Source: Gemmatimonas sp.
GTDB taxonomy: Bacteria; Gemmatimonadota; Gemmatimonadetes; Gemmatimonadales; Gemmatimonadaceae
NCBI GenBank assembly: GCA_965279375.1
Contig: OZ257156.1
Location: 160,001 to 224,000, forward strand
Direction: 5' to 3'
Length of the DNA: 64,000 nt
Part shown: piece by piece, positions 10,577 through 17,505 of the stretch
Layout of the letters: each line of letters begins with the position of its first letter
Position numbering within the stretch: the stretch's first letter is position 1
Program-made: the position numbers and the translations under genes
Notes under the pieces: generated by a model
What the model was told of the DNA's origin: nothing
What the model saw: only the letters and a program-made list of their open reading frames with translations
Databases searched by the model: none

Positions 10577-12091
10577 CTGTTACTCGTCGCCGCATTCGCC
10601 CTCGCGCTCGTGGTGCCCCCGTCCAACGGACTCCCCTCGGGAGAACCGTCGGCGGTCGGCATGTCCGCGGCCCGCCTCTCCACGATCGATCGGGTCGTGC
10701 AGCGTGGGCTCGACGCCGGCGGCTACCCGGGCGCGTCGGTCGTGGTGGGACGCAAAGGGTTCAGCGTCTGGTCCCGCGGTTTCGGGGCGCTCGACTGGAG
10801 CGGCAAGAACGCGGTCACGGCCAACAACAGCATCTACGACCTCGCCTCGCTGACCAAAGTCGTCGGCACCACCACGGCGATCATGGTCCTCTATGACCAG
10901 GGCAAGATCGATCTCGACGCCCCGGTCTCGCGCTACCTCCCCTCCTTCACCGGAGGGCTCAAGGACCAGGTCACGGTCCGCCACCTGCTCACGCACCGCG
11001 CCGGCCTTCCCGCCGGCCGAGAGCTCTGGCGCATCGCCAATACACCGGCTGAAGCGCGCGAAGCGGTGCTTAACGCCCCGATCCAGTGCACGCCGGGCGT
11101 GTGCTACGAATACTCCGATCTGGGCGCGGACATCCTCGGCTTCGTCGCCGAAGCTGCCTCCGGCGTCACGCTCGACGTGTTCCTGCGGCGCAACGTGTTC
11201 GAGAAGCTGGGGATGACCGACACGCACTACCGCCTCGACGCCATCGACATCGAGCGGACGGCCCCCACGGAAATCGCTCCGCCGCGTGGCTATCCGCTGC
11301 GCGGTGAGGTCCACGACGAGAATGCGTGGGCGCTCGGCGGGATAGCCGGCCACGCGGGCTTGTTCAGCACCGCGTCGGATCTGTCCGTTTTCGCGCAAAT
11401 GCTGCTGGACGGGGGCACCTACAACGGCGTCCGCGTCATCGCCGATTCCACGGTCAGCCTGTTCACCAAGCGCGCCGCCGGACACCGCGCGCTTGGCTGG
11501 GATACCTGCGTCGGCGGTGCCGGCTGCGGGCAGTACCTCTCGGAGCGCGCCTACGGGCACACCGGATTTACGGGCACGTCGCTCTGGATCGATCCGGATC
11601 GGCACATGTTCGTCATCCTGCTGACGAACCGGGTGCACGCGGCCCGCGCACGGCGTCCCTCCAAGGTCATCGCTGACGTCCGCAACGACCTCGCCGACGC
11701 GGCCGTCCTCGCCGTCATGGACGACCCCAACGGCGTGTTGGCCATGCCGGCCAGCTTCCGCGCCGACAAGGCGGAAGACTGGAACCGTCCGTTGCGTTCG
11801 AGTCGCGCCCGCAGCTCCGCCGCTCGTCGGCGCGCGGCCGCGGCCAGGCGTGCCAAATCCGGCAAGGCCTCCGCCAAGTCGTCATCGAAGTCATCTTCGA
11901 AGTCATCTTCGAAGTCGTCCGCCAAGCCCGCCTCGGCGAGCTCTGCCAGAGGCTCGAAGTCGTCCAAGGCATCCGCCAGCAAGTCGACGAAGGGCAAGTC
12001 GTCGGCGAAGTCTTCGAGCAAGTCGACATCCAAGTCGACGGCCAGGAAGAAGCCGCCCACCAAGTCATCGCGGTCAGGCAAGACGCGCTGA
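10577..12091 (+). CDS. Serine hydrolase (beta-lactamase class C-like) with a Ser/Lys-rich basic C-terminal tail
   Basis: SLTK (SxxK), YSD, GHTGFTG. Start uncertain: CTG 10577 restores a hydrophobic signal, GTG 10610 is the alternative. Confidence 0.85.
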   Translation: MLLVAAFALALVVPPSNGLPSGEPSAVGMSAARLSTIDRVVQRGLDAGGYPGASVVVGRKGFSVWSRGFGALDWSGKNAVTANNSIYDLASLTKVVGTTTAIMVLYDQGKIDLDAPVSRYLPSFTGGLKDQVTVRHLLTHRAGLPAGRELWRIANTPAEAREAVLNAPIQCTPGVCYEYSDLGADILGFVAEAASGVTLDVFLRRNVFEKLGMTDTHYRLDAIDIERTAPTEIAPPRGYPLRGEVHDENAWALGGIAGHAGLFSTASDLSVFAQMLLDGGTYNGVRVIADSTVSLFTKRAAGHRALGWDTCVGGAGCGQYLSERAYGHTGFTGTSLWIDPDRHMFVILLTNRVHAARARRPSKVIADVRNDLADAAVLAVMDDPNGVLAMPASFRADKAEDWNRPLRSSRARSSAARRRAAAARRAKSGKASAKSSSKSSSKSSSKSSAKPASASSARGSKSSKASASKSTKGKSSAKSSSKSTSKSTARKKPPTKSSRSGKTR

Positions 12092-12131
12092 AGTTGCGGT
12101 CGCCTGCTATGTTTCGGCCATGGAGGAGCTC

Positions 12132-12509
12132 ATGACCGACGAAACCATGTCCGCCCAAGGCGAGACCACGGACTCAATCCCGACAGATGCGATCCCGGTG
12201 GCTGAGGGTGGTGCTATCTCGGCCGATCAAGCGCGCCTCGTGCTTCGTCGCGTGAAAGATCCGGAGCTCAACCTCAACATCGTCGATCTCGGGCTCGTCT
12301 ACGACATTACCGTCGAAGGCACCGCCGTGCGTGTCGACATGAGCCTCACCTCGCCCGGCTGCCCGTCAGGCCCGGAGATCATGGGAGAGGCCGAGCAGCA
12401 GTTGAAGACCATCCCGGGTATCGGCGAAGTGACCATGAATCTCATCTGGTCGCCGCCCTGGACACCGGAGCGCATCGAGCCGCGCGTGCGCGCGTACATG
12501 GGGTTCTAG
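12132..12509 (+). CDS. DUF59 / SufT-like metal-sulfur cluster assembly factor
   Basis: DPE...NIVDLGLVY...LTSPGCP...WSPPW. GGAGGA RBS before ATG 12132; alternative ATG at 12120. Confidence 0.9.
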   Translation: MTDETMSAQGETTDSIPTDAIPVAEGGAISADQARLVLRRVKDPELNLNIVDLGLVYDITVEGTAVRVDMSLTSPGCPSGPEIMGEAEQQLKTIPGIGEVTMNLIWSPPWTPERIEPRVRAYMGF

Positions 12510-13276
12510 CGCTCCGCGTGTCGGCCGGCGAGTGCATCCATCAGGTCGAACTCCTCGTTCGATCGCAGATCCACGGCCTTCGCGCGACGCAGCTCAGTGA
12601 ATGACGATTGTCCGAAATCGCTGTTGATGAGGATGGCGCCAACGAGGACGAGATAGCGCGCATTGTTGTACGTGGTCTTGGATGCGAGTAGGTCGATACG
12701 CGCCGAGATCGCCTCGTTCATCACTTCCGTGGCTTCCTTGAGCGGATGCGTCGCCGCCAGAACGCGCGCACGTTCCCGTAGCAGAATCTGCTCGATGGTG
12801 TTCTGCTGATAGTCCAGCGTGTTCACATCGTCGGGAATGATGTGTCCCGACTGGAGCTTCGCTAACGCTGCCCGACATGCTCCGCAACAGCCGCTCGGCT
12901 TGTGCTGACCCTCGCGGAGGATCTGCCCGAGATTCCCTTGCGTGTCGATCCCAATGTGCGGCGCGTGATAAATGAACACCGCCCCATCGTCGGGCACGTG
13001 CCCGGCAAATGCGCCCATTCCCGTGAGTCCTGTAAACGGGAATCCGTCGAGGCCGCCCATTTTGAAAGGCCCCAGCATCTCGTAGGCGCGCTTGGGATAC
13101 TCGATGCTGTTCACGTCATCGCTGCAGATGCTGTCCGCCAGCATCACTCGATTGGGCGGCAGCCCAAAGCGCGTCTTGAACAGGTCCAGCAGCCGATCCA
13201 CGGATTCCATCGTGGTCATGGCGTTCGGATAGTGTCGGCGAACCGTCGCGGCAAAATCGTCTGTAGTCATGATCAC
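12506..13276 (-). CDS. LCIB/LCIC-family (theta-type) carbonic anhydrase-like protein
   Basis: ICSDD, GGLDGFPFTGLTGMGAF, PHIGI and CCGA give the Cys/His/Cys zinc-ligand pattern of the LCIB family. Start is GTG 13276 or ATG 13270. Confidence 0.75.
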   Translation of the reverse strand: MIMTTDDFAATVRRHYPNAMTTMESVDRLLDLFKTRFGLPPNRVMLADSICSDDVNSIEYPKRAYEMLGPFKMGGLDGFPFTGLTGMGAFAGHVPDDGAVFIYHAPHIGIDTQGNLGQILREGQHKPSGCCGACRAALAKLQSGHIIPDDVNTLDYQQNTIEQILLRERARVLAATHPLKEATEVMNEAISARIDLLASKTTYNNARYLVLVGAILINSDFGQSSFTELRRAKAVDLRSNEEFDLMDALAGRHAER

Positions 13277-14295
13277 ATCAGAATGTTGTTGTGAGGCAGC
13301 AGCGGAGCGGGAATGTCCGCTTCGCCCAACATCTCTCGCAAGTCGATCTCGATCGTGCGTGTCATCGCTGTAATCGGCACATCATTGACGTTGCCCTCGA
13401 ACGGATTCTCGGTCGCTTCGCCGATACGCTCCATCATCAGGAACACCCACGCAACCAGCGCCGAAAAGGGAATGGTGAGCCATGCGAAGCCAGCGCCAAG
13501 TTTGGCGAACTCACTGAGCATCCCGAGCGGTACCAGCCCGTTGAACAACCGGATGAACATCAGGTTGACCGTCGCGTACTGACGCGGATACGGAAAGTTC
13601 TTGATGCGTTCGCACTTCCCTTGCTGCGTGTAGAGATCCACGAGCAGGTTCTGCATCTCCACCTGTCGCAATTCCGACAGCAGTCCGCGCGCATGCAGTT
13701 CGCGGAGGTCGCTCGACTGAAGCGCGATCAGCTGCGTCGCCACGTTGGACTTTCCCAGTACCCGTGACTTCTCGTCGGCACTGATCAGTCCCGTCAGCGC
13801 GTCGGCGAGTGTGGCGCCATCCTGCTCCTCGACAGAAAACTTGACTCTGTATTCGCGGTTCTGCTCCTTCTGCATGTTCTCCCACCCTCGTGGCGCGCGC
13901 AGCTGAAAGCGCAACGCGTGCAACCACGCGAGGTGTCGGTGCATCAACCGCGTGTGCGCCGCGTTGAGGTCGGCTGATCTGTTCGCGCTCTCGGCGCTCT
14001 CAACGGCGACGAAATCCATGGCCATGATGCCCCACGACCGGCTGGTGTTGACGATCGCACCGTAGATCTGGCGAGCCTCCCACAAGCGATTGTAGCTGGC
14101 GTTGTTCTTGAAGCCGACCATGAATGCGACGGCCGTTCCGACAACGGCGATCGGCACCCACGGGATCGCGAGCCAGCTCCAGCCGAGCGCTTGATGGAGC
14201 GCCGTGGGTATCGCTCCCACGAGCAGGTAGAACAGAATGTCGCGACGAGTCCAGTAGAGGACTTCCCGAAGTGTGAATCGGCGACCGGTATGCAT
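13273..14295 (-). CDS. Bestrophin-family anion channel (YneE-like)
   Basis: FKNNASYNRLWEARQIYGAIVN, CERIKNFPYP and ENPFEG motifs, with TM segments. Confidence 0.9.
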   Translation of the reverse strand: MHTGRRFTLREVLYWTRRDILFYLLVGAIPTALHQALGWSWLAIPWVPIAVVGTAVAFMVGFKNNASYNRLWEARQIYGAIVNTSRSWGIMAMDFVAVESAESANRSADLNAAHTRLMHRHLAWLHALRFQLRAPRGWENMQKEQNREYRVKFSVEEQDGATLADALTGLISADEKSRVLGKSNVATQLIALQSSDLRELHARGLLSELRQVEMQNLLVDLYTQQGKCERIKNFPYPRQYATVNLMFIRLFNGLVPLGMLSEFAKLGAGFAWLTIPFSALVAWVFLMMERIGEATENPFEGNVNDVPITAMTRTIEIDLREMLGEADIPAPLLPHNNILM

Positions 14296-14337
14296 TGCGG
14301 AGCGTGTTGATCGTGCAGTTGGGGACGCGGCAGCGCG

Positions 14338-14715
14338 TCACGCGCCGGTCGAGGCGCGCGCTGCCAATGGATGACCAAGCGCGAGGATCACGAATGCCAG
14401 CACTACCACCCAACTTTCCCCAAGCAATCCCTTCCAATCGTGCAGGTGTGCGAACTGCACCAACAGAAACATGATGACGCCGAGGTTCATCCAACTGCCC
14501 CAAACAAAGGTCTTGGGGAAGAACATCATCACGCACCCAGCAAACCCGATCACACCAAGCAGTTGTCGAAGGGGAGCGCTTGTTCCGAATGGCTCGAAGA
14601 ACTTCACCATCGCTTCGCTGCCGGTGACCATTCCCCAGCCAGCGCGGAGGCTCATCCACGCCATCAACAGCATCAGTACGCCACTCAGCGCCCGCAGCAC
14701 CATGTTCATTTCCAT
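14338..14715 (-). CDS. Small DoxX-like membrane protein
   Basis: About 125 aa with four hydrophobic segments and a DoxX-like layout. Start MEMNMVLR. Confidence 0.6.
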   Translation of the reverse strand: MEMNMVLRALSGVLMLLMAWMSLRAGWGMVTGSEAMVKFFEPFGTSAPLRQLLGVIGFAGCVMMFFPKTFVWGSWMNLGVIMFLLVQFAHLHDWKGLLGESWVVVLAFVILALGHPLAARASTGA

Positions 14716-15111
14716 CGCAAGATCGGGTTGCGGGGCTCGGCGCCGAGCCCCGGGTTTCTCTTCCCTGGGCCGCGCTGCTCGCCCGGCGAAATTGTACTGC
14801 CGTGGCTGCGAGCTCGGCGGCGGCGCCCGTTGCCGAACGCGAGTTCTGCGCGACCGCCGCTTCACCGGGTACGTCGACTGGACGTTGGCGCGTCCAGGTC
14901 GGCTGCCGTCGCTGCGCCCGCCGTCGACCGCGATTCCCGTGCGGTTATCGGATACGCTGCTGACCGATTGTTGCCATTATCATCGGCCGCAAGGAGATCA
15001 TTGCGGCAGAGGCAACGGCGTTGGTGTGAACGGAAGCGGACGAGCAGGCACCGCGCACACGCCGCGCAGCGTCGTTCCGGCAATTGATGGACGCCGCGTT
15101 TTACGGCGGGG

Positions 15112-16614
15112 TCATTTGGCTGGGCCTTCGAGCAGCTTCAGTCTGGCCTTTGCGTCCGCATTGTCTGGATTGAGGCGAAGCGCGCGTCGGTACATCGCTG
15201 CGGCCTGATCGCGGCGGCCCGCTGCCTCCAACATCTCGCCATAGCTCTCGCTCAGATTGTCGTCGGACGGCCAGAGCGCGATCGCCGCGCGGAACGTCGA
15301 CAGAGCATCGGTCACGCGCCCGTTCTCGGAAAAATGATATCCGAGGTTGTTCAGATCATTCGCGCTCAAGCTATAGCTCGTTGTGTCGTCCTTGTTCTGT
15401 AGCAGGGCAACGAAGGCCGCATCCTCCCCCTCGGCCGCGAGCGTGCGAGCGTAAATACGCGTCAGCGATCGAGGCGTAGACATGGGCGCGCGACCATTGA
15501 GCATCCGCAATGCCGATAGCCCCATCCTGTAGACATTCTCACTCTCTGTATTGTCGAAAATGACGACCGTCTGATCCGAGTCGAGATTCCGCATGAAGAT
15601 CGTGACGCACCCTGGCATGCCGCCGGCGTGCCACGCGATGCGGCCTTCCGAGCGGTCGCGGAAGATGAACCAGCCGAGCCCGAGGTCCGCCTCGCCCATG
15701 CCGCCGAAGTTCAGCCAGACGTGGACCGGCGTTCCGTCGGCCAGCTTCTGCGGCGTGACCGCCGAGTCCAGCGTCGCCGGCTTGAGCAAGCGGCCATCCC
15801 TGAGGGCCCGATCGAATCGCAGCATATCGCCGGTCGTGCTGACGATACCACCGTTGCCGTAGGTACGACCGTTGTAGTAGCTCTTCGCGCCGTCCAGGCG
15901 CGTGCGTTGGTTCGAAAACCGCAGCGGATACGCGTAGTTCTGCGCAAAAAGCGGCGTATCGGGACGGTTGATCAGCGCGCTCTTGAGATAGGTCTGTCGC
16001 ATACCGGCGGGGCGCAGGATGCGGCTTGCGAGATAGGCGTCGAACCGCTGGCCGGACCGCACCTCCACCAAACGCGCCAGCAACTGATAGCCGAGATTAC
16101 TGTACCACCATTTCTCGCCTTGCTTGAGCGCAGGTGACACGCCCGACGCCGCGATCGCTGGAACGAGATCGCGCATTTCCATCGGTCGACCGAGCGTCTG
16201 TGCATAGCTCGGCGCGATTTCCTGCTCCGACATTCCGGACGAATGCGAAAGCAATTGCCGAACCGTGACGCCCTTGTAGGGAAACTCCGGGACGTAACGC
16301 GCCAGCGGTGCGTCGAGAGCGATCGACCCGCGCTCGACCAGTTGGAGGATCGCCACGGCGGTGAAGAGCTTGCCGACCGACGCCATTTCGAACTCGGTAT
16401 CCGCGGCGTTCGGTCGCTGATTCTCGAAATCGGCATAACCGAACGACCGGGCGTAGATCACGCGCCCCTTCTCCGCGACAAGCACGTTGCCGTTTAAGCC
16501 ACCGCTGCTCGCGTGCGCCCCAAAGAAGGCGTCAAGCTTCGCTGCGCGGTCCTGCGCAGCGGCCGGGGATGGCAGAAGAATCAACAGCGCGGCGGCCAGC
16601 CAACGATTTCCCAT
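15112..16614 (-). CDS. Secreted serine hydrolase (beta-lactamase-like) with C-terminal TPR
   Basis: Signal peptide, SVGK, YSN, HAGG and TPR-like end (YRRALRLNPDN). Confidence 0.9.
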   Translation of the reverse strand: MGNRWLAAALLILLPSPAAAQDRAAKLDAFFGAHASSGGLNGNVLVAEKGRVIYARSFGYADFENQRPNAADTEFEMASVGKLFTAVAILQLVERGSIALDAPLARYVPEFPYKGVTVRQLLSHSSGMSEQEIAPSYAQTLGRPMEMRDLVPAIAASGVSPALKQGEKWWYSNLGYQLLARLVEVRSGQRFDAYLASRILRPAGMRQTYLKSALINRPDTPLFAQNYAYPLRFSNQRTRLDGAKSYYNGRTYGNGGIVSTTGDMLRFDRALRDGRLLKPATLDSAVTPQKLADGTPVHVWLNFGGMGEADLGLGWFIFRDRSEGRIAWHAGGMPGCVTIFMRNLDSDQTVVIFDNTESENVYRMGLSALRMLNGRAPMSTPRSLTRIYARTLAAEGEDAAFVALLQNKDDTTSYSLSANDLNNLGYHFSENGRVTDALSTFRAAIALWPSDDNLSESYGEMLEAAGRRDQAAAMYRRALRLNPDNADAKARLKLLEGPAK

Positions 16615-16739
16615 GGTGTATTTCGGACTCCGTTCTCAGGTTGGATTGTCATCTCATCTTTGATGTCAATCGTACTGAAAAGGTTGGGTCAGCGCCGATG
16701 TGCCTCGCGGAACTCGACGGCCCCCCGCGGACCGACCGC

Positions 16740-17294
16740 TCAGGCCTTCGCCAACCGCGCCGACGCGCCACGCCGCTCCGCACGAATCGCCACCACCAGC
16801 GACTTCACCACCGGCAGCAGACTCAACGCACCCGTCCACAGCGCGGCGTCTGCAAAGTTCATCACCATGGTGCTGCTCGGCGTCAGCTGAATGGCGAAGA
16901 AGTCCGTCACGCCCGGCGGACCAAAGAGCATGCTGGCCATGTTCCCCATCGCACCACCGGCCACCAACCCGAGCGCGATGCTCGCACGCGGATCGACCTG
17001 CGAGAGCTGCCGCACGATCATCGTGATCATCGCCAGCGCCGCCCCTGTGACCAGCACGTTCAGGTGCCAGGTGTAGGGTCCCACGCTCACGCTGCCGGCG
17101 CTGCCGGTGTTGTACGTCAGCATCAGACCGAAGCGACCCGCCATCTGCCACAGCTCTCCAACGTCGAGCGTGCGCACCGCCGCAAACTTGGTCAGCCAAT
17201 CGAGCGACGCGGCGAGCGCCGCCACGCCGAAGTACAGTGCGAAGCTGACGGGAGAGTTGCTGGACGGGTCGGGGCGAAACGTCGACGATCGCAT
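16740..17294 (-). CDS. lspA: Lipoprotein signal peptidase II-like protein (atypical)
   Basis: DWLTK, YNTGSA, GGAMGN, VTDF, NFAD motifs. Confidence 0.7.
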   Translation of the reverse strand: MRSSTFRPDPSSNSPVSFALYFGVAALAASLDWLTKFAAVRTLDVGELWQMAGRFGLMLTYNTGSAGSVSVGPYTWHLNVLVTGAALAMITMIVRQLSQVDPRASIALGLVAGGAMGNMASMLFGPPGVTDFFAIQLTPSSTMVMNFADAALWTGALSLLPVVKSLVVAIRAERRGASARLAKA

Positions 17295-17450
17295 GAGTCC
17301 GGGCTCCAGAGCGTGAGGCACAGACCGTGAGCGCGATTGCTCAGCGGACGACATCCTCCATCGCACCCATCATGCCGCGTGACGGACCGGGCCATTGGCT
17401 CGGATTCGGCCTCGCCGTATAACCATAAGTCATTATCCAGCAACACGATA

Positions 17451-17505
17451 CAAAAACGAGCCGACTCCCGGCCCTCACGTGGAGGCGCCTGGGAATCGAG
17501 CTCGT
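17451..17505 (-). terminator. Probable intrinsic terminator downstream of rnd
   Basis: On the minus strand, an imperfect stem ACGAGC...GCTCGT is followed by TTTTG. Confidence 0.5.

Follow-up and report, generated by a model that had tools for sequence, protein, structure and literature searches.

A recurrent bacterial gene pair of an anion-type bestrophin and an LCIB-type carbonic anhydrase homolog as a possible bicarbonate-release module

The closest described counterparts of the gene pair discussed here come from algae. LCIB/LCIC and the thylakoid bestrophins BST1-3 of Chlamydomonas, and a theta-type carbonic anhydrase (CA) and PtBST of diatoms, belong to the same two protein families as two adjoining genes of Gemmatimonas sp. 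that encode an LCIB-type CA homolog and a bestrophin-family channel. These genes lie in a window of 64,000 nucleotides, the whole stretch of DNA that was analyzed (contig OZ257156.1, positions 160,001 to 224,000, assembly GCA_965279375.1). The pair mirrors the algal LCIB-BST step (PMC6708349, PMC11142338; this and all other papers are cited from excerpts of their text), in which LCIB is on the stromal side and BST passes bicarbonate to the lumen, and the topology would be the same in the bacterium if the enzyme is cytoplasmic and bicarbonate crosses the membrane. Unlike the algal system, the bacterial pair has no pyrenoid or thylakoid, its genes are physically linked, and no true RuBisCO was found in the genomes of 48 of 48 other carriers, many of which are incomplete metagenome-assembled genomes. 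In addition, the window bestrophin is not a close BST ortholog and the enzyme is nearer to PtLCIB4 and to the structure 6kfs than to CrLCIB. The pair does not qualify as a CO2-concentrating mechanism (CCM) because the defining link to RuBisCO is not seen across the carriers and the RuBisCO of the Gemmatimonas host is present but unlinked. The reading that we favor, with a probability of about 0.55, is that the pair is a gated bicarbonate-efflux module that serves pH and ion balance and not carbon capture.

Two kinds of bacterial units, SulP-beta-CA and SbtA-CA, also place a membrane anion pathway beside a CA, and both kinds occur in the host genome. The pair shares with the SulP-CA-type operons a same-strand adjacency that is conserved across taxa (67/80 loci from the GTDB database). 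SulP and SbtA are energized transporters, whereas a bestrophin is a passive gated channel. The Klebsiella bestrophin KpBest is of the same family (PF25539) as the window channel, and its neck helix and C-terminal acidic motif align with those of that channel. The neck of KpBest, a Na+ channel, reads I-I-F (PMC8496536), whereas the window clade has T/I-F-F. A 2026 survey recognizes five families of dissolved inorganic carbon transporters, and in the excerpts of its text bestrophins are not among them (PMC13147460). A 2024 review remarks that prokaryotic genomes contain theta-CAs, and the word bestrophin occurs 0 times in the text available from it (PMC10880623). A description of a bacterial bestrophin-LCIB operon was not found in the literature excerpts, although primary algal and diatom papers or their supplements may mention bacterial gene neighborhoods. 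Structures of bacterial bestrophins are on record, but a physiological role was not found in the excerpts of the literature cited, where the best-studied member, KpBest, is a Na+ channel.

An earlier note, made from the letters of the window, had placed the enzyme in the LCIB family on the basis of a zinc-ligand pattern (CSD, PHIG, and CCGA) and had made this assignment depend on a profile or structure match. The three motifs are found in the enzyme sequence and both matches were obtained. The LCIB_C_CA profile (PF18599) scores 214 bits against a cut-off of 25 and is covered from position 2 to 222 of 223. A structure model was built from a 37-sequence alignment and has a predicted local distance difference test (pLDDT) value of 85, with low values at residues 50-54 and 73-79, close to the active site. 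All eight Foldseek matches to the model with E <= 0.001 are LCIB-family structures (TM-scores of 0.61-0.81, with 0.78 for 5b5y), and the classical beta-CAs rank after them with E 0.01 or weaker. Residues C51, H107, and C131 of the enzyme (256-aa numbering) align to C61, H117, and C141 of 5B5Y, which were used to verify theta-CAs (PMC13147460), and the adjacent Asp is D53. C51, H107, C131, D53, H93, and R121 are invariant in 103 of 103 enzyme sequences, a set with a few duplicates in it. C130, which is beside the ligand C131, is invariant in the paired enzyme clade (88/88) and is found in just 2/15 sequences of the distant clades. The enzyme has no hydrophobic segment and is therefore likely cytoplasmic. 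It is an LCIB/theta-type CA homolog with intact zinc ligands, for which CO2-hydration activity is predicted from the sequence; the activity of LCIB/C itself is given as unconfirmed in the excerpts of PMC10096703. Some long proteins (P0127, P0146, P0151, P0168, and P0185), possibly gene-calling artifacts, combine two LCIB domains with DUF1275, cNMP-binding, Na/Ca exchanger and Calx-beta, or PAP-fibrillin domains.

The assignment of the channel to the bestrophins is likewise borne out, as the Bestrophin_2 profile (PF25539) scores 163 bits against a cut-off of 27. Hydrophobic segments span residues 40-62 and 266-289. The earlier description of the unit as built from algal CCM families holds at the level of the families, but the channel is far closer to the Klebsiella bestrophin 4wd7 (E 2e-22) than to the bestrophin-like protein 7ek1 (E 7e-4), which we take to be plant VCCN1. 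The neck residues T54, F58, and F62 align to I62, I66, and F70 of KpBest, so the first position is Thr and not Ile. F58 and F62 are invariant across 50 LCIB-linked bestrophins, and a T-F-F or I-F-F neck was found in 65/65 LCIB-linked and 4/4 beta-CA-linked channels, while in distant paralogs (no more than 33% identity) the middle position is I or L (5/5). In KpBest the I66F substitution switches the preference to Cl-, and human bestrophins pass bicarbonate with a PHCO3/PCl of 0.44-0.69 (PMC8496536). Anion selectivity is thus predicted from the neck sequence for the whole channel clade and is not special to the CA-linked copies. An x-F-F neck as a marker of CA linkage was considered and rejected, since the neck is clade-wide. 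The host has a second, distant bestrophin (C1:1002871-1003566, ~25% identical) with a middle neck residue other than F and no CA within 1.5 kb flanks.

Table 1. Features of the bestrophin-LCIB locus (positions are those of the window).
Feature	Position	Strand	Evidence
Bestrophin-family channel, 340 aa	13273..14295	-	PF25539 E 1.4e-47; KpBest 4wd7 E 2e-22
LCIB/theta-type carbonic anhydrase homolog, 254-256 aa	12506..13276	-	PF18599 E 1.7e-63; 6kfs E 2e-28; 5b5y E 2.5e-26
Junction	13270..13276	-	GTG start that shares bases with the bestrophin TGA, or ATG start two bases past the TGA; from sequence
Small DoxX-like membrane protein	14338..14715	-	42 bp upstream of bestrophin; weak DoxX_2 match, E 0.04, below the cut-off

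The bestrophin stop had been noted as overlapping or abutting the start of the next gene, and the sequence agrees (Table 1). The TGA stop occupies 13275-13273, and the enzyme can start either at a GTG at 13276, which shares bases with this stop (GTGA) and gives a product of 256 aa, or at the ATG at 13270, which gives 254 aa, the length on record. This junction is consistent with translational coupling of the two genes. The enzyme gene runs to 12506, and its stop codon there overlaps that of a convergent DUF59 gene.

Adjacency of the two genes might have been unique to this genome, as the earlier note had allowed, but it was found to be widespread. A scan of GTDB with the enzyme confirmed 331 relatives, and the best 80 loci, a set biased to close relatives, were analyzed. 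In 67 of them a bestrophin on the same strand is found no more than 300 bp from the enzyme gene, upstream in 56 and downstream in 11 (a count based on open reading frames (ORFs) yields 65, as contig ends truncate two bestrophins), and the intergenic gaps are mostly <20 bp. A metagenome scan, for which the best 80 of 283 loci were analyzed and which overlaps with the GTDB set and so is not independent, gave 53 adjacent pairs and another with a spacing of 654 bp, and contig ends truncate several of the 26 loci counted as misses. Judged by record titles, the pair is present in five phyla: Gemmatimonadota, Bacteroidota, Acidobacteriota, Myxococcota, and Nitrospirota. This recurrent same-strand adjacency supports a conserved two-gene unit. 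In Gemmatimonadota, LCIB was found in 2/301 genomes and the bestrophin clade in 5/301, and both LCIB carriers have the pair. Named cultured carriers include Pedobacter caeni DSM 16990, Runella defluvii DSM 17976, and Flavobacterium caeni. One locus (L052) is titled as a cyanobacterium (Vulcanococcus), but its K+-channel-like, bestrophin, and LCIB genes nest among those of Bacteroidota, which may reflect mis-binning or transfer. An enzyme-channel fusion was considered and rejected, as long frames that span both genes in three loci (L008, L010, and L011) are shadow frames and no ORF matches both families. A search for fusions among longer proteins found none, although this is weak evidence (0/30 long representatives scanned have a bestrophin domain).

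The pair has been formed more than once. On a bestrophin tree of 102 rows, made by a quick method, the LCIB-linked label has to change 11 times, and well-supported branches force 8 of these changes. In the enzyme tree (FastTree), the partners of four divergent bestrophin lineages nest in one shallow Bacteroidota clade of 55 rows. Across 65 pairs, the pairwise identities of the bestrophins show no correlation with those of the enzymes (rho 0.046, a value reached by 137/500 permutations), and enzymes that are 78-83% identical adjoin bestrophins that are just 32-37% identical. Approximately unbiased (AU) tests rejected monophyly of the 20 bestrophins whose partners belong to the Bacteroidota enzyme clade (p 1.6e-53), and likewise of the full set of 33 CA-linked bestrophins (p 8e-49); these tests used a 47-row subset picked to cover the subclades, with distant paralogs excluded, and the grouping was decided with the trees already in view. 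Strict co-inheritance of enzyme and channel was rejected on the basis of the uncorrelated identities and the AU tests. Since near-identical enzymes adjoin deeply different bestrophins and a single clade is rejected, we infer that the pair has been re-formed repeatedly. Such re-formation speaks for selection on the combined functions, and the re-pairing makes a rigid co-evolved interface between enzyme and channel less likely.

The Gemmatimonas copy itself looks like an acquired insertion. The host genome is a single contig that is 99.95% complete; its gene content is Gemmatimonas-like, and most of the closest named relatives are Gemmatimonadaceae. The DUF59 gene and lspA are often near neighbors in genomes of the same genus, and the gap between them (window 12510-16700) is an insertion hot spot that is empty in several of these genomes, holds ~35 kb in one (G577), and carries other cargo in another (G574). 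Among the matches listed for 25 same-genus genomes, the pair occurs only in G567, elsewhere in the genome, and G247 has the bestrophin alone. The locus has a GC fraction of 0.60 against 0.654 for the genome, and the DoxX-like gene upstream of the bestrophin is 75% identical to the gene that precedes the pair in two Bacteroidota loci (L008 and L011) and two metagenome loci (L088 and L089). The low GC, the near-absence from same-genus genomes, and this 75% identity make it likely that the pair was acquired; the DoxX-like gene is probably a fellow traveler that lies outside the core. These same features, along with the frequent occurrence of either gene alone, would also suit a stress-island cassette in which the genes are transferred together and act separately. 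We consider co-transfer of this kind the least probable of the explanations discussed here. Both gene orders occur with gaps that are mostly short, no flanking gene is widely shared, and the enzyme has acquired new partners from no fewer than four divergent bestrophin lineages, while mere hitchhiking would leave the two trees congruent.

Evidence on what the two proteins have in common comes from channels of the same clade that adjoin a different CA. Loci of the best bestrophins were read with 1.5 kb flanks in 251 genomes drawn evenly from the order of Runella (G301), termed here the Cytophagales-type sample. A classical beta-CA adjoins the channel in 4/29 of the loci read, and a further beta-CA neighbor was found by coordinates in G386, for a total of at least five loci. 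In these loci a Can-type beta-CA stands in for the LCIB enzyme next to a channel of the same clade, which suggests CO2/bicarbonate chemistry as the shared function. It is also conceivable, though very doubtful, that species other than bicarbonate are involved, with the enzyme either converting a different small substrate or gating the channel as a non-catalytic sensor, and the channel conducting Cl- or some other anion. COS and cyanate are examples of substrates used by relatives of the beta-CAs, an invariant C130 is characteristic of the paired clade, and the enzyme gene also follows genes for cation and proton transporters. The retention of all of the catalytic-site residues and the beta-CA substitution both argue against this explanation.

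The alternative that has the most in its favor, although we regard it as unlikely, is inorganic-carbon supply. Here the channel would admit bicarbonate, or the enzyme would trap entering CO2, for anaplerotic carboxylases or for the host's form II RuBisCO, in the manner of SulP-CA and SbtA-CA units. Gemmatimonas is a photoheterotrophic genus. The host has genes for form II RuBisCO (887 bits against a cut-off of 489), class 1 fructose-bisphosphatase (FBPase), and phosphoribulokinase (PRK, scanned over its first 75 residues only) in a row at C1:608498-612022, and a two-subunit photosynthetic reaction center at C1:3117089-3118746, which together suggest a potential photoautotroph or mixotroph. At C1:4813809-4815994, genes for SbtA (PF05982), a PII-like SbtB-type protein, and a beta-CA precede that of a probable LysR-type regulator, and from its gene content this cluster is a complete bicarbonate-uptake operon; the N-terminus of its beta-CA is twin-arginine-like by eye. 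A SulP gene overlaps a Can-type beta-CA gene at C1:535614-538014, and DabA was searched for in the host genome and was not found. Carbon supply also has a parallel in Chlamydomonas, where a carbon-recapture model includes an interaction of LCIB/C with BST1 and BST3 (PMC6708349).

Several results point away from carbon supply. The earlier note had reported no RuBisCO within the window, which nothing contradicts, and the cbb genes of the host are ~435 kb from the pair. RuBisCO-family matches were obtained in 4/49 genomes searched (48 of them pair carriers), and all score best as RuBisCO-like OiaX, below every cut-off. A general link of the pair to RuBisCO was rejected, as 0/48 other carriers have a true RuBisCO. 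The carriers checked own other beta-CAs: there are three matches in the host, and a beta-CA is present in 5/5 pair-bearing genomes of the Cytophagales-type sample, so that LCIB as the sole housekeeping CA was also rejected. Finally, a passive channel cannot build up an anion against an inside-negative potential.

These considerations lead back to bicarbonate efflux. In this reading the two genes make up a mobile unit that has been re-assembled repeatedly, with an enzyme that likely interconverts CO2 and bicarbonate and an anion-type bestrophin that likely releases bicarbonate. In the mechanism that we propose, the cytoplasmic enzyme would hydrate CO2 to bicarbonate and a proton, a trigger would open the channel, and the inside-negative potential would drive bicarbonate out. 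The result of such a cycle (CO2 in, bicarbonate out, proton retained) would be a net export of base and depolarization, which may be useful to a cell whose cytoplasm is too alkaline, hyperpolarized, or loaded with respiratory CO2. Coupling of the two proteins is likely metabolic and regulatory and would not require a fixed physical complex. In other genomes, a K+-channel-like protein, TMEM175, a Na+/H+ exchanger, or an H+-pyrophosphatase (H+-PPase) encoded beside the unit may balance charge or pH. The outward direction follows from the behavior of an open passive anion channel in an inside-negative membrane, through which bicarbonate goes outward and anion accumulation inside is impossible. 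The earlier note had proposed a channel-CA unit for either CO2/bicarbonate capture or pH control. Control of pH and ion balance fits best, given the pH- and ion-handling neighbors and the lack of RuBisCO in other carriers, and capture is weak as a general function in view of the RuBisCO result, the other beta-CAs, and the direction of a passive channel.

The only widely shared flanking gene encodes a K+-channel-like membrane protein, which has an Ion_trans_2 pore along with a filter-like motif, GFGD, and is found in 16/80 GTDB and 11/80 metagenome loci. TMEM175 occurs in 1/80 GTDB and 5/80 metagenome loci, a Na+/H+ exchanger in 2/80 and 1/80, and an H+-PPase in 1/80 and 2/80, after two short H+-PPase hits that likely matched only a fused OmpA domain were dropped. 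Among the 13 GTDB loci that lack a bestrophin, 4 have a gene for a K+-channel-like protein, a Na+/H+ exchanger, or an H+-PPase immediately upstream of the enzyme gene; all of these neighbor figures are raw counts. None of these four kinds of genes is beside the window pair. An H+-PPase gene directly upstream of an LCIB gene was observed in L072 (3095-5854, fused to an OmpA domain), L132, and L134. TMEM175 abuts a close bestrophin with no CA beside it in L166, L182, and L183 (genomes G302, G316, and G548), and a close LCIB gene lies elsewhere in each genome.

A number of observations weigh against an efflux module. The dependence between the two genes is one-sided, as most relatives of the window bestrophin have no CA neighbor. 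In the Cytophagales-type sample, close bestrophins (E <= 1e-60) occur 107 times in 68/251 genomes and 5 adjoin LCIB, 25/29 of the best bestrophin loci read have no CA within 1.5 kb, and the same holds for 3/5 Gemmatimonadota carriers of the bestrophin clade. The anion-type neck marks the clade and not a link to a CA, because 30/30 unlinked close relatives share it. PF18599 was found in 22/251 genomes of the same sample (a 24th match, a fragment, is left out), where enzymes of >=50% identity adjoin a bestrophin in 5/7 cases and the distant LCIB clades (23-37% identity) do so in 0/16 loci, two of which have a bestrophin at 2.4 and 4.9 kb. Pairing is therefore a property of one LCIB subclade, since close enzymes are often paired and distant ones are not, and even among the close enzymes a neighboring bestrophin is absent from 13/80 GTDB loci. 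According to the excerpts of a review (PMC5876011), no CA activity was seen for several recombinant proteins of the LCIB family whose zinc sites are intact, a finding that also favors another substrate or a sensor role. The direction of flow is drawn from general bioenergetics, and the host's Calvin-cycle cluster and its SbtA and SulP transporters leave a carbon-supply role open in this host.

A bolder extension, which we consider quite unlikely, would make the pair a sixth, channel-based class of bacterial inorganic-carbon handling. An LCIB-type CA would dock onto a bestrophin of the anion type, through which bicarbonate would cross the membrane, in many cases with a K+ channel as the counter-ion path, as a free-living counterpart of the algal LCIB-BST step; in the host it may be wired to carbon supply, with a light-acidified periplasm as the equivalent of the thylakoid lumen. 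Apart from this extension, a clade with an anion-type neck that repeatedly recruits two types of CA makes bicarbonate a direct, testable substrate for bacterial bestrophins, and these proteins would gain a testable job if the efflux reading is true. An interaction between the same two families has been reported for the algal CCM, where bicarbonate flux through BST and LCIB activity are hard to prove directly, and the cultured carriers offer a two-gene bacterial system for such tests.

Scans of the surrounding DNA gave few additional features. At the locus, 0 sigma-70 sites were found against 0.6 expected and 2 terminator-like sites against 1.9 expected, and an Rfam scan of 12000-17500 gave 0 matches. 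NCBIfam has no model for either the bestrophin or the enzyme of the pair. A serine hydrolase gene at 10610-12091 on the plus strand encodes a Lys/Ser-rich, histone-like tail of ~95 residues (11800-12091), and this tail is also present in the ortholog from G574.

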